Positions 4,208-63,952 of a stretch of 64,000 nt of DNA are shown here, one piece after another. The notes below the pieces were generated by a model. The model saw only the letters and a program-made list of their open reading frames with translations, had not been told where the DNA came from and ran no database searches. The position numbers and the translations under genes were made by a program. Every line of letters starts with the position of its first letter. Position 1 is the first letter of the stretch. The stretch comes from Candidatus Zambryskibacteria bacterium RIFCSPLOWO2_02_FULL_51_21 (lineage in GTDB: Bacteria > Patescibacteriota > Minisyncoccia > Phycocordibacterales > Zambryskibacteraceae). The DNA is taken from assembly GCA_001824255.1 (NCBI GenBank), contig MHWQ01000002.1:139548-203547 (forward strand), read 5' to 3'.

Positions 4208-4813
4208 ATGAAGAAGCAAATGGGGATAAGTACCCTCAAAAGGTTCGATACGCCACAGAAGATTCAAAGTTTCCTTAACCGGCTGCCTTTCAACTTCGAG
4301 AAGCACGGTCAGACGCATCGGAGTGTTGCGGAGGCCTTGAAGAGGAAGAAGGCGCATTGCTTTGAGGGGGCGCTCATTGCGGCGGCTGCTTTACAACTCC
4401 AAGGTCGGCCGCCGCTTCTCCTCGACCTGAAGACCGTCCGCCCCGACTTCGACCATGTCGTAGCCCTTTTCAAAGAAGGGAAGTATTGGGGAGCCATTTC
4501 CAAGACTAACCACAACGTTCTCCGATACCGCGACCCAATTTACAGAGATGTCCGGGAACTTGCCATGTCTTACTTCAACGAATATTTCCTGGCCGACGGC
4601 ACGAAAACTTTGAGGAAATATTCAAAACCCTTTGATTTATCAAAATACGGGACCGTCTGGATTGATTCCAAAGAAAATCTCGTTTGGCTTGCCCACAAAC
4701 TCGACAAATCGCCTCACGCAAACATCCTGACGCCCAAACAGGTGAGAAATCTCCGCCCCGCCGACCGGATAGAAGTGAACGCCTCGGGGCTTACGGAGTG
4801 GAAACGGAGATAG
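4208..4813 (+). CDS. transglutaminase-like (papain-fold) putative cysteine peptidase. The ORF track extends to a TTG at 4139.
   Basis: Ordered Cys/His/Asp candidates: 'KKAHCFEGALIAAAAL', 'DFDHVVALFKEGKYWGAIS', 'NHNVLRYRD'. No signal peptide. Confidence 0.45.
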   Translation: MKKQMGISTLKRFDTPQKIQSFLNRLPFNFEKHGQTHRSVAEALKRKKAHCFEGALIAAAALQLQGRPPLLLDLKTVRPDFDHVVALFKEGKYWGAISKTNHNVLRYRDPIYRDVRELAMSYFNEYFLADGTKTLRKYSKPFDLSKYGTVWIDSKENLVWLAHKLDKSPHANILTPKQVRNLRPADRIEVNASGLTEWKRR

Positions 4814-5566: not shown

Positions 5567-5635
5567 AATGCTACAGCAATCTTCCAACAGGTCAAACGCC
5601 ACCTGTGGATAACTGAAATCTGATGTTGTCAGATT

Positions 5636-7408
5636 TCAGACTCCCAAGATAACCGGAATGACTATCGGCTTCTTGGCTGTTTTTTGGAACAGGAAGCGGG
5701 AAACATCTTCGGAGACGGCGTTTTTGGCCAGGTCGAAGTTGATGGGATTTGAACCCATAGTCGAGGACTCAATCGAGCGGCGGATAATGTTTCTCGCCTC
5801 GCTTAGAAGCTCCTGCGATTCGCGGAGATAGACGAAGCCGCGCGCGATGATGTCAGGCGACTTCTTGAGCCGGCCGTTTCTGGAATTGACGAGAGCGATG
5901 ATGACGAAGATGCCGTCGCCCGCGAGCATCTTCCTGTCGCGGATGACCACTTCGCTGATGTCGCCGATATTCAATCCTTCGACCACCATGTCATCCGACG
6001 GCGCTTTCTCCGGAAGTTTGATGAACTGCTTGCCGCCATCGCGAATCTCGATGATGGAACCGTTGTCCGGGACGATGATGTTCTCGCGCGGGCAGCCGAG
6101 ATTGGCCGCGAGCTCCGCGTGCATCTTGAGGCGGAAATGACTGCCGTGGACGGGCATGAAATATTTATAAGGAATTTGCTTGTGCACCCACTCAAGCTCG
6201 CCCCGCTTGCCGTGGCCCGAGGTGTGCACGTCGGAGTCGAGGTAGGTGATAATCTTCGCGTCATGGCGGAAGAGATTGTCCTTCAGCTTCTCGACGGCGC
6301 GGTCGTTGCCTGGGATGACGGAAGAAGAAAGGATGATGGTATCACTACGCTGCAGCTTCACGTATTTGTGCGTCTTGTTCGCCATTCTCATGAGCGCGGC
6401 AAACTCTTCTCCCTGCGCGCCGGTGGCAATCATCATCACCTTGTTGGGCGGAAGCTTCTCGATTTCTTCGACCGGCACGATGTGCGAGACGTCGACGAGA
6501 TTCAGGTGCTTGATGATGTCGACATTGGTCTTCATGCTCCGGCCCTCGATAACGACCTTCCTGCCGTAGCGCCTGGCGGTGTTCATAAATTCAATAATGC
6601 GCTCGACCTGCGAGGCGAAGGTGGCGATAATGACTCTGCCCGGAGCCTGCCCGACGATAGCGTCGATATTCTTCAGGATGGAAGCTTCAGAAGGCGAGAA
6701 GCCGGGTTTGTCAATGCCCGTCGAATCCATGGTGAAGAGCAAAACGTTTCTATCCTTAAACATTTTGTACTGCTCAACCTCTTTCTCTGCCGGCACGCCG
6801 GCTTCGTTCTCGATGCGCACGTCGCCGGTATTCACGATGTCGCCGTAAGGAGTCTCGATGATGATGCCTGTCGAGTCGGGGATTGAGTGGGTAAGTCCGA
6901 AGAAGCGCACCTTGAGAGTAGGTGTTAAGGGGATTGCCTTGTCGCCCGCTTCCACGATGCGGATGTCGAGAGGCGCGAGCTGAGGGAACTCTTCCTGGCG
7001 CTTGCGGATGAGCAGCGCTCCGAATTCGCGGGTATAGATGGGCGGATTGCCGAGGCGGGTGATGAGGTAGGGGATGCCGCCGATGTGGTCGAGGTGGCCG
7101 TGAGTGATAACGAGGGCGCGGATGCGGTCCTTTCTGTCCTCAAGATATTTGATATTGGGTAGAATGTAGTCGACACCAGGCGTTTCCGGGTCGGTGAACT
7201 GGATGCCGGCATCTACCACGATGATGTCATTGCCGTATTCGATGACGGTCATATTCTTGCCGATTTCCTCAACGCCGCCCAAAGGCACGATGCGTATCGC
7301 GTCGTTAATTGGCGGAATTATGTCGTGGGGCTTCTTCATGGGAATGGGAGAGTTGCTTCTCCTTCTCATGTTTTTCTGGCGAAGGCTATGAGTGAAAGTA
7401 GGGTTCAT
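5636..7408 (-). CDS. rnj: ribonuclease J (metallo-beta-lactamase/beta-CASP RNase)
   Basis: 'ITHGHLDHIGGIPYL' HxHxDH motif, beta-CASP region, ~560 aa core. The N-terminal extension in the ORF track is probably an upstream alternative start (likely MKKPHD). Confidence 0.9.
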   Translation of the reverse strand: MNPTFTHSLRQKNMRRRSNSPIPMKKPHDIIPPINDAIRIVPLGGVEEIGKNMTVIEYGNDIIVVDAGIQFTDPETPGVDYILPNIKYLEDRKDRIRALVITHGHLDHIGGIPYLITRLGNPPIYTREFGALLIRKRQEEFPQLAPLDIRIVEAGDKAIPLTPTLKVRFFGLTHSIPDSTGIIIETPYGDIVNTGDVRIENEAGVPAEKEVEQYKMFKDRNVLLFTMDSTGIDKPGFSPSEASILKNIDAIVGQAPGRVIIATFASQVERIIEFMNTARRYGRKVVIEGRSMKTNVDIIKHLNLVDVSHIVPVEEIEKLPPNKVMMIATGAQGEEFAALMRMANKTHKYVKLQRSDTIILSSSVIPGNDRAVEKLKDNLFRHDAKIITYLDSDVHTSGHGKRGELEWVHKQIPYKYFMPVHGSHFRLKMHAELAANLGCPRENIIVPDNGSIIEIRDGGKQFIKLPEKAPSDDMVVEGLNIGDISEVVIRDRKMLAGDGIFVIIALVNSRNGRLKKSPDIIARGFVYLRESQELLSEARNIIRRSIESSTMGSNPINFDLAKNAVSEDVSRFLFQKTAKKPIVIPVILGV

Positions 7409-9721: not shown

Positions 9722-9757
9722 AAGGGCGGGACGCTAGCGTCCCGCCCTTTCTGTGCT
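9721..9757 (+). terminator. Rho-independent terminator
   Basis: 'gaagggcgggacgctagcgtcccgccctttctgtgcttt' has a perfect 12-bp stem plus T-run. Confidence 0.7.
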
Positions 9758-24062: not shown

Positions 24063-24893
24063 ATGAAATCTTTGCAGGAATGCATCACGGAGGCGGAAAA
24101 GAAAGGGGTGGCGATAGGGCACTTCAATATTTCTGATTCAGAAGGTTTTAAAGCGGTGGCAGAAGCTGCGAAGCAGCTTCTAGTTCCCGTCATCATTGGC
24201 GTCTCCGAAGGCGAGAGGGAATTCATAGGCCTCAAAGAAGTAGCGGCGCTCGTCCAGGTGGCGAGAGAAAGCGGCATGGAAATATTTCTCAATGCCGACC
24301 ATCACTACTCGGTCGAGAAGGCGAAGCAGGCGATAGATGCGGGAGTGGATAGTGTCATCATAGACGCCGCTGATAAAACTCTGGAAGAAAATATCGCTGT
24401 TACCCAAGAGATTGTCCAGTACGCGGGCGGACGAGCGTTGGTTGAAGGGGAGGTTGGATTTATAGGTAAATCGTCAAAGATTCTTGAGGAAGTGCCAGAA
24501 GGAATCTCGAAAACTAGTCCAGACGAAGCCGAACTCTTCGTCAAATCCACAGGCATTGACCTACTTGCGCCTGCTGTTGGCAACGTACACGGAATAATAA
24601 AGACCGGGGAACCCAAGCTAGACATTGAGCTTATCAGAGCTATCCGCGAGAAGGTAAGGGTGCCTCTTGTCCTCCACGGCGCTTCCGGTAACTCTGACGA
24701 AGACCTGAAGGCCGCGATAAAAGCGGGCGTGAGTATTATCCACATCAATACAGAGCTTCGGCTCGCCTACAAAGAAGGTATCGAGGAGGGCATCAAATCC
24801 GGCGAAGTGGCACCATACAAGTTTATGAAGGAGGCGGTCGAGAATATGAAGGAAGTGGTGGTGAAGAAGCTCAAACTTTTCAATAATTTATGA
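24063..24893 (+). CDS. fba: class II fructose-bisphosphate aldolase family protein
   Basis: 'GVAIGHFNISD', 'LNADHHYS', 'HGASG' blocks of the class II (Zn) aldolase/TBP aldolase family. Confidence 0.8.
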   Translation: MKSLQECITEAEKKGVAIGHFNISDSEGFKAVAEAAKQLLVPVIIGVSEGEREFIGLKEVAALVQVARESGMEIFLNADHHYSVEKAKQAIDAGVDSVIIDAADKTLEENIAVTQEIVQYAGGRALVEGEVGFIGKSSKILEEVPEGISKTSPDEAELFVKSTGIDLLAPAVGNVHGIIKTGEPKLDIELIRAIREKVRVPLVLHGASGNSDEDLKAAIKAGVSIIHINTELRLAYKEGIEEGIKSGEVAPYKFMKEAVENMKEVVVKKLKLFNNL

Positions 24894-40044: not shown

Positions 40045-40075
40045 CTAAAGACTGGCGGACCCTTGCGGGTCCGCC
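40045..40075 (+). terminator. Rho-independent terminator
   Basis: 'ggcggacccttgcgggtccgcc' + ttttcactt. Confidence 0.65.
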
Positions 40076-40186
40076 TTTTCACTTATCCACAGTTTGAAGG
40101 GAAAAGGAGGGTATTGCGTCTAGTATTGTGGCGATGGGTGGGATAGAATGTTAAGGGGTGGGAAAAAGTGGTATTATGAAAAAAAT

Positions 40187-50201: not shown

Positions 50202-52499
50202 TCACGCTGTTGCTTCGACTGGCACGAAGTCCGTCTCGCACACGCCGCCCGCGCAAGCAAGCTCCTTGGCGCCGTTTGTCATATCTTCCTGCTCATAGGC
50301 CACGAGTTTCGAGAAATCGAGGTGTCCGAGCTCCTTCAAGCGCCTTTCGTACTCCTCTTTCGTTATCTCTTCGTACGGCGCGAGCTGATAGACGTGATTG
50401 TTCCTGGGAAGGAAGGAGAGACCGCCGACGATATCCCAGTTTTTGTAAACGAAGTTTGCCACCGATATCCATTCGTCATCGCCGATATAAATGGTGACCG
50501 AAGGATTGTGTTCGGTGAAATGAACCTTGAGCCTCTTCCACTCCTCAAGCATCTCAAGCGCCGTTACGTCCTTGTTGACGAGCGCGCCCTCGGGAGCCTT
50601 GCAGGGGAATTCCATGACCATGGTCGCCGCGTTCGAGGTCGAATAGCCGACTTCGGGGAAGACCGGCACGCCCTGGTTCCTGGCAAGCTTCAATAGAGGG
50701 TCATTGGCGGAGATGCGCACCCGGCGGATGTAGTAGTGCGAGTACCAAGTGTGCATGCCGGAGCCCACGCCCAAGAGCTGGCCGGAGTTGCCATGGGGCT
50801 TCACGCAAGTGATGGCAGTCGATTCGTTCTTGCCGAAGCGCTTGGCGTATTTCTTGTTCGTCTTCATCGATTCTTCGCGTAAAATTTGCAAATTCTTGTC
50901 GTTCCTCACGAGCTTGTTGTCGTAATAGCCGGTGATGGAGACGCCGAGCAATTGTTCCTTCTCGCAATTCTTCTTCCACTCTTTCGAGAGATAGCCGAAG
51001 TCGGTAAGCGTCGCCTGGTAAGTGCCTAGAAGCGTTGCCAGGCGCATCTTCCTCTTCAAATTTTCCATATCATCTCCCGGCCGCACCACAATCGAGGTGA
51101 GATTGCAGAATTGCTTCGACTGGAGGTAAATCTCGCCGCAAGGATTGACTCCCGGCTGCTTGGCTTTCTTCAAAACATCCCAGCGCCTCTTGGGCACCTG
51201 GGCCGACAAGCTCCCGCGGTTAAATATTCCTCGCTCGCCGGAATGCGAAGTGACGAGTGCCGTCCACTCCTGCATGAATTCTTCGGCCGTCGGCTTGGCC
51301 TCGTAGACCGCGGAATTGTTTGCCATCGAGCGCTGGCCCTCCGTCTGCCAGAAGGCGCCCTTCTTGGCATCGCGGACTTCGGTATCATCGAGAGAGGAGA
51401 GTGAGATGAGGGCCGAGCGGCGCACGCCTCCGGCAACGACAATAAGCCCTATCTGGCAAATGATGTCGTGCAGGTCGAGAGTAGAGAGGCGGCGGCCCTG
51501 CTTGGCAAGCATCTTCCTCCTGGTAAATTGCATAAGCTCCTGAAGAGGGGCCGGGCCAGAAGCGCGGCCGCCCATGGTGGCAAGTTTGGCTCCAGCGGGG
51601 CGGATGAGGGAGTAGTCGAGCTCAACGTCCTTGCCCTTCTCCCAGGCGGTGCAGGCCGCCACATACGCGTTGCACCAGCCCTCCTTGCTGTCCTCAATAG
51701 TAATCTTCGGCGCCATCTGGCCCGTCTGCTTCTGAATCTGGGGGAACTTGCCCACGTTCTCAGGCTCGACGGAGAAACCGCATCCGGCTCCGCACATCGA
51801 GACATACATTATTTCGGAGAGGTCGCGCCAAGAAGTGGGCGCGATGTAAGCGCAATTATAAGCGGTGACATTTGAAGCGTCGGCCGCTTTGCCCGCCGAC
51901 CACAGGAGGCGCATGGAAGGGCAAATGTCCTGGACTAATATTGCCTCACGCACTTCCGAGTATTCGCTTGAGGTCAGGGCGTCTCCCATTTTTCCCTTCA
52001 TGTATTCCATGAAGCGGTCTATCGCCTCAATCCAAGTCTCGCGTCGGCCCAGCTCCGGCCTCCATTTCGAATAGAACTGGTAGAAAATAAATTCCTGATA
52101 CGGAGTTTTGAAGTACTTGCTACTATCGGCAATCTTGTCCTTGACCTCTTGGGGGATAAGAGCGGTATGCTCCCTCGCCTTGGTGCGCTCGGCGCGGTAG
52201 AGAATATAGGCCTTGGCCGTCGCCGTAAGCTTCTGGAGCATGAGCTCCATCTCCACTAGGTCCTGGATGCCCTCAACCGTAGGGACAAACTTCTTGTCGA
52301 ATGAGCGGCGCAAAGAAAGTTTTCTCACCACCGATTCGGTAATCTTCTCCGCCACTCCGGGACGATATTCCTTGGCTTCCTGCAGAGCCTTAGTAACAGC
52401 GTGAGTGATTTTATCCGGATTGAAAGGGACTGTCGAACCGTCGCGTTTAATGATATTCGAGAGTCGAGAAGGGCGAGTGGCTGGAGCTTTTTTGGGCAT
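50202..52499 (-). CDS. nrdJ: class II (adenosylcobalamin-type) ribonucleotide reductase with N-terminal ATP-cone
   Basis: ATP cone 'IIKRDGSTVPFNPDKITHAVTKAL'. Active-site 'VNPCGEIYLQSKQFCNLTS'. No glycyl-radical tail. Start set at MPKKAP. Confidence 0.75.
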   Translation of the reverse strand: MPKKAPATRPSRLSNIIKRDGSTVPFNPDKITHAVTKALQEAKEYRPGVAEKITESVVRKLSLRRSFDKKFVPTVEGIQDLVEMELMLQKLTATAKAYILYRAERTKAREHTALIPQEVKDKIADSSKYFKTPYQEFIFYQFYSKWRPELGRRETWIEAIDRFMEYMKGKMGDALTSSEYSEVREAILVQDICPSMRLLWSAGKAADASNVTAYNCAYIAPTSWRDLSEIMYVSMCGAGCGFSVEPENVGKFPQIQKQTGQMAPKITIEDSKEGWCNAYVAACTAWEKGKDVELDYSLIRPAGAKLATMGGRASGPAPLQELMQFTRRKMLAKQGRRLSTLDLHDIICQIGLIVVAGGVRRSALISLSSLDDTEVRDAKKGAFWQTEGQRSMANNSAVYEAKPTAEEFMQEWTALVTSHSGERGIFNRGSLSAQVPKRRWDVLKKAKQPGVNPCGEIYLQSKQFCNLTSIVVRPGDDMENLKRKMRLATLLGTYQATLTDFGYLSKEWKKNCEKEQLLGVSITGYYDNKLVRNDKNLQILREESMKTNKKYAKRFGKNESTAITCVKPHGNSGQLLGVGSGMHTWYSHYYIRRVRISANDPLLKLARNQGVPVFPEVGYSTSNAATMVMEFPCKAPEGALVNKDVTALEMLEEWKRLKVHFTEHNPSVTIYIGDDEWISVANFVYKNWDIVGGLSFLPRNNHVYQLAPYEEITKEEYERRLKELGHLDFSKLVAYEQEDMTNGAKELACAGGVCETDFVPVEATA

Positions 52500-52634
52500 T
52501 TTTGGCAGGTTAGTAAACGTTAATAAACCTAAATTTTTAATGTCATTACATTTTAATACAATCGCAATCAAAAAAACTGGGGATATGTATTGACAAAGGG
52601 GCAGGCTTGTATGCGCCTGCCCCTTGGATGAATT

Positions 52635-52841
52635 CTACTGACCTTCGGCTTCGTTTTTCTGGCCCTCGCGCCAGTTGTCGAGCGGTGTGAGCTCCTTCAC
52701 AGGCACTGCAACGGGCATGATGCCGGCGGGACGACCCGTGTTTGGCTTCGGTGCCAGTCTTCCCGTGCTCCTGAAACGACGAGTGCTACGCCTTGAATAG
52801 ATGCGGCGGTCATGTCTGCACGAACCCGGGAGCATACACAT
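52635..52841 (-). CDS. small Arg-rich protein (68 aa), paralogue of the next ORF
   Basis: GGAGGT RBS 7 nt before the ATG. Followed by hairpin 'aaggggcaggc...gcctgcccctt' (52598-52627). Confidence 0.3.
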   Translation of the reverse strand: MCMLPGSCRHDRRIYSRRSTRRFRSTGRLAPKPNTGRPAGIMPVAVPVKELTPLDNWREGQKNEAEGQ

Positions 52842-52989
52842 ACGGGAAACCTCCGGTGTGAGTGAGAACAACAACGAGACTTCTGGCTCAATCTTCTTAC
52901 AAGCCCGATAGGAAATCAATGACAAACAGGGGATAGAAGAAGGGCAGACCTGTCGGTCTGCCCTTTATGAACACGAGTATGAATACGAA

Positions 52990-53136
52990 CTACCTGTCCT
53001 GCCAGTGCGGCGGGTCGGGTTTGACACCCGATGCTTTCATCTTCTTGGCCAGCGTCGACAGGTTCGATACCGGCTTTCTCGGACGGCGGCCCTTCCGGCC
53101 GCGAATGCAGCCGAGATGAACTCTTCGTCTCGTCAT
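52990..53136 (-). CDS. small Arg-rich protein (48 aa)
   Basis: GGAGGT RBS 5 nt before the ATG. C-terminus 'KPDPPHWQDR' echoes 'TPLDNWREGQ' of the ORF at 52635..52841. Followed by hairpin 'aagggcagacc...ggtctgccctt' (52937-52963). Confidence 0.3.
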   Translation of the reverse strand: MTRRRVHLGCIRGRKGRRPRKPVSNLSTLAKKMKASGVKPDPPHWQDR

Positions 53137-53162
53137 GAGAACCTCCACTATTTATCTTAGCA

Positions 53163-53615
53163 TTATCCTAGGAGTTTGTCAACGGCGGCTTTGACCACCA
53201 TGCCGTCAGCCTTGCCTTTGAGTTCTTTCATGACAGACCCCATGAATTGATTCTTCTTCTCTTTCTCCGGCTTTTCGGCTTCGAATTTGGTTCTAACATA
53301 CGCTTCCACTTCTTCCGCAGACATCTGGGTGGGGAGGTACGCTTCGAGCACGGCCATCTCGGCCTTCTCGGCATCGACGAGGTCCTTTCTGCCGCCTTTT
53401 TCAAACTGCTCTATAGAATCCTTCCTCTGTTTGACTCCTCGGGAAATTACCGCGAGTGCATCTTCGTCGGAGAGCTCTTCGTCGGGCTTCCTCTTCTTCG
53501 CCACAAGCTCGTTAGTGAAGGCGGCCATGAGCCCGCGGATAACGGACAGCTTCACAGCTTCCTTAGCTTTCATAGCTTCAATCATTTGAGCTTTTATATC
53601 GGTTTGGAGTGACAT
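53163..53615 (-). CDS. GatB/YqeY domain protein
   Basis: 150 aa, 'IKAQMIEAMKAKEAVKLSVIRGLMAAF...DALAVISRGVKQRKDSIEQFEKGGRKDLVDAEKAEMAVLEAYLP'. Confidence 0.8.
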   Translation of the reverse strand: MSLQTDIKAQMIEAMKAKEAVKLSVIRGLMAAFTNELVAKKRKPDEELSDEDALAVISRGVKQRKDSIEQFEKGGRKDLVDAEKAEMAVLEAYLPTQMSAEEVEAYVRTKFEAEKPEKEKKNQFMGSVMKELKGKADGMVVKAAVDKLLG

Positions 53616-54598
53616 GTTATAATTCTTTTATGGATTGGACACTCATTATCCTTGTTGCGCTCCTCATAGTCAACGCCTGGCTTGTATTGAAGCTTACCGG
53701 ACAGAAGAAAGAGGAGCCGAGGTCGGACGGCATGCTCCTCCTCCAGAACCAGATGCAGGGCCTGAACAAGAGTATTAATGACAGCATCCGCGATATCGTC
53801 AAGGAGGTTACCCGCGTCTCCGAAACAGGGAGGCAGATGATAGGCTTCACGGACCAGCTCCAGAATCTCCAGGATATTTTGAAGAATCCGAAACAGCGCG
53901 GCGTCTTGGGTGAATATTACCTCGAAACCTTGCTGAAGAACGTCCTGCCGCCGGGAAGCTACCAGATGCAGTATCCTTTCCCGGACGGCACCATCGTGGA
54001 CGCAGTTATCTTTGTCAAAGACAGGATAGTGCCGATTGACTCCAAATTTTCGCTCGAAAATTATAACCGCCTGGCGGGAGAGAAAGACCCAGGTGAAAAA
54101 ACCCGTCTGGAGAAGCTCTTCGAAAACGACCTCAAACTCCGGATTATCGAGACGAGCAAATATATCCGCCCGCAGGACAAGACCATGGACTTCGCCTTCA
54201 TGTTCATCCCGCACGAAGCCATTTATTACGACCTTGTCTCCGGCACCGTGGGCGCTTCGGAGGAGAATCTTATCCAGCGCGCCGCCGGGAAGTACAAGGT
54301 CATTGCCGTAAGTCCGACATCGCTTTTCGCCTACCTTCAGACCGTTCTTGAGGGCCTTAAAGGCATGCAGATCGAGGAGAGCATCAAGGAGGTTATGAAG
54401 AACGTGGTGGGCCTGCAGAAACACCTCATTTCCTACCAGGAATACCACGATAAGATCGGCAACGCCTTGGGCACCGTGGTCAACCACTATAACAGTTCCC
54501 ACAAAGAATTCAGGAAGATAGACAAGGATATACTGAAAATCACGGGCTCGAGCATGGATATAGAAACATTGACTTTGGACAAACCATCAGTAGAATAA
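53609..54598 (+). CDS. rmuC: DNA recombination protein RmuC
   Basis: N-terminal TM, long coiled coil, 'DAVIFVKDRIVPIDSKF', 'FAFMFIPHEAIY'. Confidence 0.85.
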   Translation: MTCYNSFMDWTLIILVALLIVNAWLVLKLTGQKKEEPRSDGMLLLQNQMQGLNKSINDSIRDIVKEVTRVSETGRQMIGFTDQLQNLQDILKNPKQRGVLGEYYLETLLKNVLPPGSYQMQYPFPDGTIVDAVIFVKDRIVPIDSKFSLENYNRLAGEKDPGEKTRLEKLFENDLKLRIIETSKYIRPQDKTMDFAFMFIPHEAIYYDLVSGTVGASEENLIQRAAGKYKVIAVSPTSLFAYLQTVLEGLKGMQIEESIKEVMKNVVGLQKHLISYQEYHDKIGNALGTVVNHYNSSHKEFRKIDKDILKITGSSMDIETLTLDKPSVE

Positions 54599-55532: not shown

Positions 55533-57038
55533 CTAGAAGTTTTTAAAGTCTTCCTCCGCCTTGCCGTAGTTCGAGTAATCAATTTCAACAAAGGTGTTGA
55601 AGCGGCTGTGGAAGTCGAGCACCGCCGTGCCCAGAGGGCCGTTCCTGTGCTTGGCGATGATAAGTTCGCGGCGCTGGACCTCCTTCATCCTGCCGTTCTC
55701 GTCGCGGAGGTCCTCTTCGTTACTGTGTATGAAAATAACGCAGTCGGCATCCTGCTCGAGCGAACCGGAATCCCTAAGGTCTGATAATTTGGGCTTGCCG
55801 CCGCGCGTCTCAATGGCACGGGAGAGTTGAGAGAGAGCGATGACGGGTATGTCGAGCTCGCGGGCGAGGTGCTTCAACGAGCGGGAAATCTCGGTGACCT
55901 GCTGAACCATGGAGTCATTGGTGCGGGCACTCGAGGGCGCCATGAGCTGGAGATAGTCGACGATAAGGAGCTTCAGACCCTTCTCAATCTTCAGTTTCCT
56001 CGCGGCGCTCCTCATCTTCATGATGGTGTTGCCCGGCTGGTCGTCGATGTAGATGGGAGTGCGGGAGAGGTCGTCCAAGGCGTCCCTGATATTCTTGAAG
56101 ACGTCTTCGCGCCAGGTGCCGGTCTGGGTACGGATGCCCTTCCTGATGATGGAGGCGTCGGTCTTCGACTGGGCGGCGACAATCCTGTCAACCAGCTGGT
56201 CGGCGCTCATCTCGAGAGAGAAGATGCCGACCGGCGTCTGATGCTCGGAGGCCGTGCGGCGGGCGATGTCGAGGGCGAGCGCGGTCTTGCCGACGGAAGG
56301 ACGGGCCGCCAATATGATGAGGTCGGACTTCTGGAAGCCGCCGAGGATGTCGTCGAGTGCTTTGAAACCCGTCGGCACGCCGCGGAGTTCGTGCTCCGCG
56401 CTCGAGAGCTTCTCGAATCTTTCAAACGCTTCGGCCAGAAGGGGAGTAAGGTCGCGGAAGCGAGCTGACCCGGCGAAGTGCTGAGTGATGTCAAAAATTT
56501 TCTTCTCCGCCTGGTCGAGAATTTCTTCCAGCTCGCCTGCTTCGTTGAAGCCGAGATGCGAGAGATGCTCGGAGGCCTCAATGAGCTGTCTCATCATGTG
56601 CTTCTTCATTACAATCTCGGCGTAGTGCTTGACGTTGGCCGAAGACGGGACTGTCCCCGCCAGTTCCGTCAGGTAGCTCGTGCCGCCAAGGCGCTCAAGC
56701 TCACCCTTCTCCTTAAGCCGCGACGAAAGCGAGAGGATGTCGATGGGCGAGTGCTTGCCGAAGAGTTCGAGCATCGCCTCGAAAATAGTTCTGTGCTTCT
56801 CGAAATAGAAGGAAGCGGGAACGACTATGTCAAGAATTTCATAAATAGCATCCGGACGGAGCATGATGCTTCCGAGAAGCGCCATCTCCGCTTCGGCCGA
56901 ATGCGGCGGGATGCGAAGGCCGGCGTTGGTGAGAGGACTTTGTCCCGAGATTTGCATACGCGAATTATAGCGAATCCAATCGAATGATACGAATAGGCAA
57001 GATGGGGAAGAATGTGGTAATAAGCTGGGGATTGACAA
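55533..57038 (-). CDS. dnaB: replicative DNA helicase DnaB (start probably internal, MQISGQS)
   Basis: N-domain. Walker A 'ILAARPSVGKTALALDIA'. 'SLEMSADQLV', 'VIALSQLSR'. Confidence 0.9.
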   Translation of the reverse strand: MSIPSLLPHSSPSCLFVSFDWIRYNSRMQISGQSPLTNAGLRIPPHSAEAEMALLGSIMLRPDAIYEILDIVVPASFYFEKHRTIFEAMLELFGKHSPIDILSLSSRLKEKGELERLGGTSYLTELAGTVPSSANVKHYAEIVMKKHMMRQLIEASEHLSHLGFNEAGELEEILDQAEKKIFDITQHFAGSARFRDLTPLLAEAFERFEKLSSAEHELRGVPTGFKALDDILGGFQKSDLIILAARPSVGKTALALDIARRTASEHQTPVGIFSLEMSADQLVDRIVAAQSKTDASIIRKGIRTQTGTWREDVFKNIRDALDDLSRTPIYIDDQPGNTIMKMRSAARKLKIEKGLKLLIVDYLQLMAPSSARTNDSMVQQVTEISRSLKHLARELDIPVIALSQLSRAIETRGGKPKLSDLRDSGSLEQDADCVIFIHSNEEDLRDENGRMKEVQRRELIIAKHRNGPLGTAVLDFHSRFNTFVEIDYSNYGKAEEDFKNF

Positions 57039-60960: not shown

Positions 60961-61337
60961 TGAGTGTAACAGAAGAGGTCACTTTTGACAATAGCGGCCG
61001 TATAGAACGCTTTCCTTGGGCCAGGAAGTTCTACCTCTCGGCTGTCATAATGTTGGTGGCTCTATTCTCTTTTGCTCTGGGCAAGCTCTCAGCTGGGGAT
61101 AATAGGGGAGAAGCAGTCAGGATTGAGTACGACCCCAACCTTTCTGCCGCCTCGGCAATAACCGCCGTCTCAACCTCCAAAACCTCGGTCGTGGCCTCCA
61201 AAAACGGCAAGAAATACCATTATCCGAGCTGCCCGGGAGCCAAACAGATTGCCGAAGCCAACAAAATAGTCTTCGCCTCGGCCGAAGCCGCCGAAGCTTC
61301 CGGATATACCCTCGCTAGTAACTGTACTAAGCCATAA
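60960..61337 (+). CDS. membrane-anchored protein with C-terminal Cys module (YHYPxCxG...GYxxxxxC)
   Basis: One TM, Ser/Thr/Ala-rich linker, then '[40 protein letters not shown]'. Confidence 0.45.
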
Positions 61338-63690: not shown

Positions 63691-63952
63691 TATAGTATAG
63701 CGAAGGTCTCTTGACAGGCAAACTCTTAACTGTGGATAAGTTTCTTTCTTTGCTCTATTCCCCACTAATCATGTCTCAAAAATTTCTCAAAATTTTTCTG
63801 TGACAAAAATATTTTTCTTTAATTAAAACGGGCCCCGACCTCAGTCGTCGGAGCCCTCTCCCCTATTGAGCGATGGGGGATTGATTTTCTTTGATATTTC
63901 TATTAAGGTAGCCCCAGAATCGTACACCCAAAAGCTAACTAAGGAGAGTGAG

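Follow-up and report, generated by a model that had tools for sequence, protein, structure and literature searches.

Does the short interval between yqeY and nrdJ in a Zambryskibacteria genome encode proteins, and if so, do they serve the ribonucleotide reductase gene that follows them? We addressed this question in a 64,000-nucleotide stretch of Candidatus Zambryskibacteria bacterium RIFCSPLOWO2_02_FULL_51_21 (contig MHWQ01000002.1; hereafter the window), in which the yqeY-nrdJ interval of the minus strand consists of two small units, open reading frame 1 (ORF1) followed by ORF2. An initial annotation had described them as a tandem pair of small arginine-rich genes, each with a strong ribosome-binding site (RBS) and a hairpin, and had proposed nucleic-acid binding, control of nrdJ or toxicity as possible roles. 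Based on comparisons with related genomes, we read the interval as two independent small protein-coding genes of a Zambryskibacteria sub-clade, with a probability of about 0.6.

The NrdJ sequence places the host within Candidatus Zambryskibacteria (Parcubacteria; Candidate Phyla Radiation, CPR). The closest species-level relative among the comparison loci is L006 (NrdJ 90% identical), followed by L012 (85%), which has one small ORF in the yqeY-nrdJ gap, and L007 (83%), which lacks the cassette. L008, L009, L048, and L062 are more distant (75-77%). The yqeY neighbor is also found in L006, L012, and L081, and L006 has the same order as the window (yqeY, ORF1, hairpin, ORF2, hairpin, nrdJ). For yqeY and nrdJ, dS between the window and L006 is about 1.0-1.3, which is close to saturation of synonymous sites; features conserved between the two are thus under constraint. 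The window sequence itself was found in 15 metagenomic contigs. Those examined do not differ in the interval and thus give no information on polymorphism.

Coding evidence for the two small ORFs

As the initial annotation had proposed, the minus strand carries two very basic ORFs, of 48 and 68 codons (ORF1: pI 12.0, net charge +13; ORF2: pI 11.1, net charge +8). The ORF1 protein is 76% identical to its L006 ortholog, with DNA identity of about 66% over the first 39 codons. The codon differences comprise 18 synonymous and 11 non-synonymous changes, and the ratio of non-synonymous to synonymous divergence (dN/dS) is 0.15, compared with 0.17 for yqeY and 0.06 for nrdJ in the same pair of genomes. 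In a six-frame comparison, the proposed frame retained 34 of 45 identical residues (BLOSUM score 194), whereas the next best frame retained 26 of 44 (125). The start, stop, and RBS of ORF1 are all kept in L006.

For ORF2, the N-terminal core D-R-R-x-Y-x-R-R-S-T-x-R-..-T-G is retained in L006 through many synonymous changes, whereas the C-terminal half has diverged and differs in length. Over the whole gene, the proportion of changed non-synonymous sites (pN) is 0.39 against 0.78 for synonymous sites (pS), and third codon positions carry a disproportionate share of the differences. In L012 and L081, the yqeY-nrdJ gap contains a single small basic ORF (65 aa and 70 aa, respectively), preceded by a strong RBS and followed by a terminator. 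The two encoded proteins are 63% identical, with a dN/dS of 0.11. Across these four species, the ORF2 frame is the sole frame that stays open.

Loss of either frame in the relatives was looked for, and the frames held in both the dN/dS and the open-frame comparisons. Given the dN/dS values of 0.11-0.15, the conservation of the frames, and the conserved starts, stops, and RBSs, these are not chance ORFs. The comparisons indicate that both are protein-coding genes, with purifying selection on both frames. The earlier claim that they are not random ORFs is therefore borne out by selection, by conserved expression signals, and by conserved downstream hairpins. The gene callers used for public assemblies also predict both.

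An unusual feature of ORF1 is its 3' end, where 29 nucleotides are unchanged between the window and L006 (Table 1). None of the eight degenerate codons in this segment has changed, compared with 18 of 24 in the rest of the ORF (Fisher p = 2.9e-4), and the 29-nt sequence occurs only once across the window and all comparison loci. No antiterminator or long-range pairing that could account for it was conserved in the folds of both the window and L006, and the promoter scan found no opposite-strand promoter that could do so.

This stretch could be taken to mean that the two units are non-coding RNAs, or a structured 5' untranslated region, in which the ORFs are incidental. Both units are short and end in stable hairpins, and both have low folding z-scores (-4.5 and -3.7), although these are driven by the hairpins. 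However, an Rfam search of the whole window, with relaxed thresholds on the interval, returned three tRNAs elsewhere and chance-level hits, and no family matched the interval at gathering or relaxed thresholds. The substitutions are codon-like, the proposed frames alone stay open and are the best conserved, and the perfect Shine-Dalgarno (SD) sequences and ATG codons are maintained. We regard a non-coding origin as extremely improbable.

Promoter-like sites, ribosome-binding sites, and hairpins

Each ORF has the GGAGGT sequence that the initial annotation had placed 5-7 nt upstream of the start; the spacing is 4 nt for ORF1 and 7 nt for ORF2. A promoter scan flagged a site ahead of ORF1 (P1) and flagged the identical hexamers and spacing in L006. 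In L081, it flagged TTGACA-17-TAGAGT. We infer that P1 serves as the ORF1 promoter. A second site, P2, would serve ORF2. Coordinates are given in Table 1.

Table 1. Features of the yqeY-nrdJ interval and its flanking genes, by position in the window.
Feature	Positions	Strand	Remarks
yqeY (GatB/YqeY-domain protein)	53163..53615	-	Upstream neighbor; Pfam PF09424, E 5.6e-38
P1, promoter-like, ORF1	53154..53182	-	TTGACA-17-TAAGAT, upstream TG; scan-flagged; overlaps yqeY 3' end
SD sequence GGAGGT of ORF1	53141..53146	-	Conserved in L006
ORF1, 48-aa basic protein	52990..53136	-	MTRRRVHLGCIRGRKGRRPRKPVSNLSTLAKKMKASGVKPDPPHWQDR plus stop; ATG 53136 to stop 52990
Invariant 3' end of ORF1, 29 nt	52991..53019	-	Last 9 codons (PDPPHWQDR) and 2 nt of stop; nucleotide-identical in L006
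H1, putative ORF1 terminator	52940..52965	-	11-bp perfect stem, loop 4; arms AAGGGCAGACC/GGTCTGCCCTT
DnaA-box-like TATCCCCTGTTT	52924..52935	-	Upstream of P2; direct repeat of 52574-52585
P2, putative ORF2 promoter	52891..52919	-	TTGATT-17-GAAGAT; aligns with scan-flagged L006 TTGACG-17-GAGAAT
SD sequence GGAGGT of ORF2	52849..52854	-	Same spacing in L006
ORF2, 68-aa protein	52635..52841	-	ATG 52841 to stop 52635; basic N-half (+9), neutral/acidic C-half
H2, putative ORF2 terminator	52596..52625	-	11-bp perfect stem, loop 8; arms AAGGGGCAGGC/GCCTGCCCCTT
DnaA-box-like TATCCCCAGTTT	52574..52585	-	Upstream of nrdJ
TGTATTAAAAT, nrdJ-proximal promoter-like motif	52550..52560	-	About 44 nt before ATG; identical in window, L006, L012, L081
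nrdJ, class II (B12-dependent) ribonucleotide reductase	50202..52499	-	N-terminal ATP-cone; Pfam ATP-cone, RNR-II insertion, RNR barrel

A hairpin follows each small ORF, as the initial annotation had stated. The 11-nt arms of both are 100% complementary, and the pairing GGGCAG..CTGCCC occurs at these two places only in the 64 kb, against 0.14 occurrences expected from shuffled sequence. H1 is kept in L006, with an inner-stem change on both sides (ACC/GGT to GCGC/GCGC). At the H2 position, compensatory double changes are found in 4 of the 8 consensus pairs across the four species. Sequence identity between the L012 and L081 hairpins is only 33%, and both nevertheless fold. Selection acts on hairpin structure and not on hairpin sequence. 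The hairpins at the H2 position of L006, L012, and L081 were flagged as intrinsic terminators with proper T-runs by a scan that demands at least 5 T in the 8 nt after the stem. Because of the compensatory changes and the canonical U-tracts of the relatives, H1 and H2 are best read as intrinsic terminators. The distance from stop codon to hairpin varies between species, from about 24 to 9 nt for ORF1 and from about 6 to 27 nt for ORF2. Hairpins of the same style (AAGGGC...GCCCTT) are found at further gene ends of the window, such as AAGGGCGGGACG...CGTCCCGCCCTT at 9722-9749.

The pairing of a hairpin with each gene raises the alternative that the products are arginine-rich-motif peptides, similar to lambda N or HIV Tat, that bind their own hairpin RNA and either autoregulate or tune termination and read-through toward nrdJ. 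Both proteins have arginine-rich N-terminal segments, and that of ORF1 (GRKGRRPRKP) is close in composition to the GRKKRRQRRR of Tat. The two hairpins of the window also share an AAGGG(G)CAG core. In contrast to boxB and TAR, however, the hairpins here are variable and terminator-like, and the proteins have no sequence homology to lambda N or Tat. The stems are not conserved across species (as in L012 and L081) and the loops all differ; thus, no specific recognition element is preserved. Similar hairpins end other genes of the window, and the two proteins are mutually unrelated despite the likeness of their hairpins. We therefore consider hairpin recognition decidedly unlikely.

Two lineage-restricted proteins

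The two proteins were searched for widely. A word-indexed search of about 5.8 billion clustered proteins with ORF1 and ORF2, and an exhaustive phmmer search of 1.84 billion representatives with ORF2, returned only the query sequences. A metagenome pattern scan for ORF1 recovered the L006 genome again and nothing else, and scans of viral contigs gave no match for either family. Pfam contains no family matching the small ORFs at E-values up to 1, and NCBIfam and PHROGs gave nothing meaningful at E-values up to 10. The only PDB matches were designer pentatricopeptide repeat (PPR) proteins, inflated by their repeats, and a segment of a coronavirus N protein (E 3.8), and these point to no family. 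Profile searches, of the kind suggested in the initial annotation, thus assigned neither peptide to a family and found relatives in sister species only.

Within these limits, ORF1 is known from two species, the window and L006. A positional equivalent of ORF2 occupies the yqeY-nrdJ gap in four Zambryskibacteria species. A profile search with ORF2-type proteins added one species (L080/L081), and its matches consist of three sister-species proteins only, one of which carries the NCBI annotation "hypothetical protein." The L012 and L081 proteins align with ORF2 of the window at z 3.3-3.8 in shuffle-controlled alignments, and hhalign gave no significant match. The L012-type protein is therefore only weakly an ORF2 homolog by sequence, and is otherwise linked to it by where it lies, its size, and its distribution of charge. 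In every member, the N-half is strongly basic (+8 to +11) and the C-half is neutral or acidic. The cassette is absent upstream of nrdJ in L008, L048, L062, L010, and L011. In these loci and in L009, its position is taken by a gene that appears DUF192-like by eye, no family search having been run. No small basic ORFs were found downstream of yqeY in the distant CPR loci L046 and L064, and no paralogs of the small ORFs were found elsewhere in the window. Both proteins appear to be lineage-restricted orphans, confined to a few sister species and belonging to no described family.

The two PDB matches each concern one segment. ORF1 residues 28-42 (53011-53055, minus strand; TLAKKMKASGVKPDP) resemble the helix-B/loop consensus of pentatricopeptide repeats (LFxEMKEKGVKPD). 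The E-value of 7e-9 for residues 29-42 is inflated by nine identical designer repeats contributing about 3 bits each, and the resemblance is probably a coincidence. ORF2 residues 7-25 (52767-52823, minus strand), which form the basic core SCRHDRRIYSRRSTRRFRS, resemble the arginine-rich segment SSRDDQIGYYRRATRRIRG of the "Nucleoprotein" chain 9f7a_A, presumably the RNA-binding region of this coronavirus protein. At E 3.8 the match is not significant, and we treat it as a compositional analogy only.

A duplicated gene or a duplicated flank?

The initial annotation had interpreted the pair as a duplicated cassette of small gene plus terminator. Only the flanks fit this description. Both 3' flanks consist of an AAGGG(G)CAG hairpin, then TATCCCC[T/A]GTTT, then TTGATT, whereas the two proteins, and the DNA that encodes them, are alike in composition only. 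BLASTP produced no alignment between ORF1 and ORF2, hhalign gave an E-value of 0.32, and Smith-Waterman scores did not differ from shuffles for protein or DNA (z about 0). Comparing profiles of ORF1, ORF2, and the L012 type with one another also gave nothing significant. The C-terminal ending P-x-D-x-W-x-x-(R/Q) that the two were said to share fits neither exactly, as ORF1 ends in PDPPHWQDR and ORF2 in PLDNWREGQ plus seven residues. The tryptophan segment of ORF2 is missing from its L006 ortholog. We also tried ORF1 as a frameshifted duplicate; the signal was borderline and not robust (best p = 0.01 in 16 comparisons).

The evidence for duplication of the genes themselves is weak. A hairpin followed by a box also occurs at 40054-40093 in the window, suggesting that the arrangement mostly reflects a terminator followed by the upstream element of the next promoter. 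The likeness of the 3' flanks, taken with the single-cassette state of L012 and L081, would fit a segmental duplication by which the common ancestor of the window and L006 gained a second terminator/promoter module.

The nrdJ control region and the DnaA-box-like element

The ORF list places the start of nrdJ at TTG 52571 (789 aa), whereas orthologs and public gene calls support ATG 52499 (765 aa). The additional 24 codons of the longer version overlap a conserved promoter-like region. Here, a box resembling the DnaA-box consensus precedes the motif TGTATTAAAAT, and the nrdJ upstream region is AT-rich. Variants of the box lie upstream of nrdJ in L006, L007, L012, and L081 (in L006, at 5927-5936). 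L007 has no cassette and a different, divergent upstream neighbor, yet it keeps an altered box and the motif, in the form TATATTACAAT. A perfect TTATCCACA lies upstream of nrdJ in L008, L009, L048, and L011, all of which lack the cassette. The distance of the box from nrdJ is about -120 in L008, L009, and L048, -95 in L011, -81 in L012 and L081, and -37 in L007. A box of the TTATCCACA type is absent from most Nomurabacteria-type loci examined. Between L012 (5827-5967) and L081 (972-1115), identity is 87% from the hairpin to the nrdJ ATG, compared with 64% for the small ORF and 33% for the hairpin. Given the conserved box and motif and this level of identity, nrdJ has a strongly constrained control region of its own downstream of H2, and we infer that the box and TGTATTAAAAT act as the nrdJ promoter.

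These observations also bear on the proposal that the ORFs are cis-acting leader peptides, whose translation would govern the formation of H1 and H2 and so attenuate transcription into nrdJ. In attenuators such as trpL and pheL, a short ORF and a terminator hairpin precede a metabolic gene on the same strand. The same arrangement is seen here: both ORFs lie directly upstream of nrdJ on its strand, with a hairpin after each, the weak U-tracts of the window make read-through conceivable, and ORF1 closes with a DPP motif and the nucleotide-perfect 3' end. Unlike in trpL and pheL, however, both ORFs are preceded by promoter-like sites of their own, and the nrdJ promoter region lies after H2, where the box and TGTATTAAAAT persist in genomes without the cassette. 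No conserved antiterminator pairing was found, as minimum-free-energy and centroid folds contain the terminator hairpin only and flanking pairings differ by species. The stop-to-hairpin distance is variable, and purifying selection acts on most of the length of the peptides, which is not typical of attenuator leaders. A role as leader or regulator of nrdJ in cis, one of the initially proposed functions, is disfavored by the persistence of the upstream elements and by the variable spacing, and we consider attenuation very unlikely.

The box itself recurs. The motif TTATCC[A/C]CA(G) is overrepresented in the window: with up to 2 mismatches allowed, it matches at 22 sites, where 7.2 would be expected. 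The DnaA-box consensus is contained in the sequence of the best copies, TTATCCACAG, and four perfect TTATCCACA 9-mers are present. The best copies are intergenic and lie 1-11 nt upstream of -35-like hexamers (e.g., 5612-, 40083+, 63739-); the box at 40084 is directly 3' of a terminator hairpin. The copies ahead of ORF2 and nrdJ (cTATCCCCt and aTATCCCCA) match 7 of 9 consensus positions (TTATCCACA / TTWTNCACA), with C instead of A (TATCCCCA) at position 7; L006 has cTATCCACA. No box precedes the ORF1 unit. The recurring box may mark a DnaA regulon, or it may be an element specific to this lineage that lies upstream of promoters.

The copies recorded in the window are at 5603-5612(-), 40083-40092(+), 63730-63739(-), 24736-24744(+), 61093-61102(-), 4220-4229(-), 52574-52585(-), 52924-52935(-), and 57022-57033(-), and one copy lies near the start of dnaB. 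The idea that the DnaA-like boxes mark a chromosomal origin (oriC) at this locus was rejected, as cumulative GC skew has no turning point at 52-53 kb.

Control of ribonucleotide reductase (RNR) genes through DnaA boxes is established for E. coli nrdAB and has been proposed for B. subtilis and C. crescentus (PMC8203912). The locus described here is similar in having a TTATCCACA-like 9-mer upstream of an RNR promoter. It differs in that position 7 deviates in the window and that the box also precedes other promoter-like sites, and the parallel concerns the box after the hairpins, not the small proteins. By this analogy, the box is a sensible candidate regulator site for nrdJ, and for ORF2 in the window and L006. 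The conservation of such a box upstream of nrdJ, with or without the cassette, suggests DnaA-like control of class II RNR in Zambryskibacteria.

Two neighbors of nrdJ were also recorded. In L080 (2994-3551), the gene after nrdJ is of the Cob_adeno_trans family (PF01923), in keeping with an adenosylcobalamin-dependent RNR. In the window, the gene downstream of nrdJ, on the opposite strand, encodes a DNA_binding_1 (MGMT-like) protein.

Possible functions of the two proteins

Structure predictions suggest largely disordered products. The AlphaFold2 model of ORF1, built from a single sequence, has one short helix (residues 26-36) and disorder elsewhere, with a mean per-residue confidence (pLDDT) of 69. 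That of ORF2, from a shallow alignment, has no secondary structure (pLDDT 56). Judged from composition, the products are most likely not enzymes, membrane toxins, or cis-acting leader peptides.

In the arrangement that we favor, each gene would be monocistronic: a sigma-70-like promoter would drive a transcript that has a very short leader and a strong RBS ahead of the ORF and that stops at an intrinsic terminator. The hairpins would end the short transcripts and insulate nrdJ, which would be transcribed from its own promoter behind the DnaA-box-like element, and a copy of the terminator/box/-35 module would sit ahead of ORF2. By their composition, the basic, largely disordered products would most likely act by binding nucleic acid, whether RNA, the ribosome, or DNA. 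Of the roles first proposed, nucleic-acid binding is the one that composition and predicted disorder make plausible; its ribosomal-protein form found no matching model.

Small ribosomal and ribosome-associated proteins (bS21, bL34, bL36, bTHX, Sra) are comparable in size, basicity, strong RBS, and monocistronic organization. The yqeY neighborhood is a further likeness, as rpsU often adjoins yqeY in Firmicutes. Unlike these proteins, ORF1 and ORF2 match no ribosomal model in Pfam or NCBIfam and no ribosomal chain in the PDB, and their presence in few species argues against a core ribosomal role. Another comparison is with proteins of the DUF1127 type (YjiS, A. tumefaciens), which are encoded by stand-alone genes, are about 50 aa long and arginine-rich, and are thought to bind macromolecules rather than to act as catalysts (PMC11707872, PMC12501420). 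The genes described here are likewise stand-alone and encode small arginine-rich proteins, but they have no Pfam match and occur in 2-4 Zambryskibacteria species, whereas DUF1127 is widespread.

Small size and strong positive charge are also features of toxins, either those of type I toxin-antitoxin systems or cationic peptides that are secreted, and an opposite-strand hairpin inside ORF1 with a T-rich run could end an antisense RNA. However, the peptides are hydrophilic and lack a signal peptide as well as any hydrophobic or transmembrane segment, and no plus-strand promoter-like site was found in 52000-53700. No toxin family was matched in Pfam (PADLOC was not searched), and ORF1 evolves slowly, as housekeeping genes do. 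The toxin role suggested in the initial annotation thus receives no support from the hydrophilic peptides or the plus-strand promoter scan, and we judge it highly improbable.

Yeast Sml1 and Spd1 are examples of small disordered modulators of RNR. By analogy, the ORF2-type protein might act in trans as a partner of ribonucleotide reduction or replication, either as a disordered modulator of NrdJ or as a factor co-regulated through the box. In all four species that have it, the ORF2-type gene directly precedes nrdJ, and the same module of box and -35 hexamer precedes both ORF2 and nrdJ in the window and in L006. In addition, DnaA boxes control E. coli nrdAB (PMC8203912), and ORF2 is predicted to be disordered. 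On the other hand, synteny is expected among close relatives whatever the function, the small gene of L012 and L081 would be driven by P1 without a box, and the C-half, the likely interaction surface, is not conserved. We consider this role unlikely.

Weighing the two-gene model

Several observations weigh against reading the interval as two independent genes for nucleic-acid-binding proteins. The selection estimates are pairwise, drawn from two to four species, with saturated synonymous sites (pS 0.6-0.8). Transcription and translation are deduced from the DNA sequence, and the nucleic-acid-binding role is plausible on charge and predicted disorder, the two properties from which it is derived. 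The window copy of P2 falls below the scan threshold. The U-tracts of H1 (CUUCUUCU) and H2 (UUUGUC) in the window are weak and fail the T-run rule, so read-through into ORF2 or nrdJ is possible. Finally, the 29-nt end of ORF1 shows some non-coding constraint for which the two-gene model does not account.

A more specific possibility would give the genes a dedicated regulatory role in deoxynucleotide supply or replication of a reduced CPR genome, with ORF2-type proteins acting on RNR or replication, or with arginine-rich peptides acting on their own hairpins to set read-through into nrdJ. We think this quite unlikely. If true, ORF2-type proteins, under joint control with nrdJ by way of a DnaA-box-like module, would parallel in bacteria the disordered RNR inhibitors of eukaryotes, and in the hairpin-binding version the 29-nt end of ORF1 would be part of an RNA switch.

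Implications

Read as two independent genes, the interval would add two unnamed micro-protein families to the poorly characterized coding repertoire of CPR/Patescibacteria. Sister species at saturating synonymous divergence allow genes of this kind to be validated from sequence alone. The corrected annotation of the yqeY-nrdJ interval would list two genes, each with its terminator, and would place the nrdJ promoter after a DnaA-box-like element, with no riboswitch or leader. If either protein is linked to the control of ribonucleotide reduction or replication, it would represent a new kind of class II RNR accessory factor.

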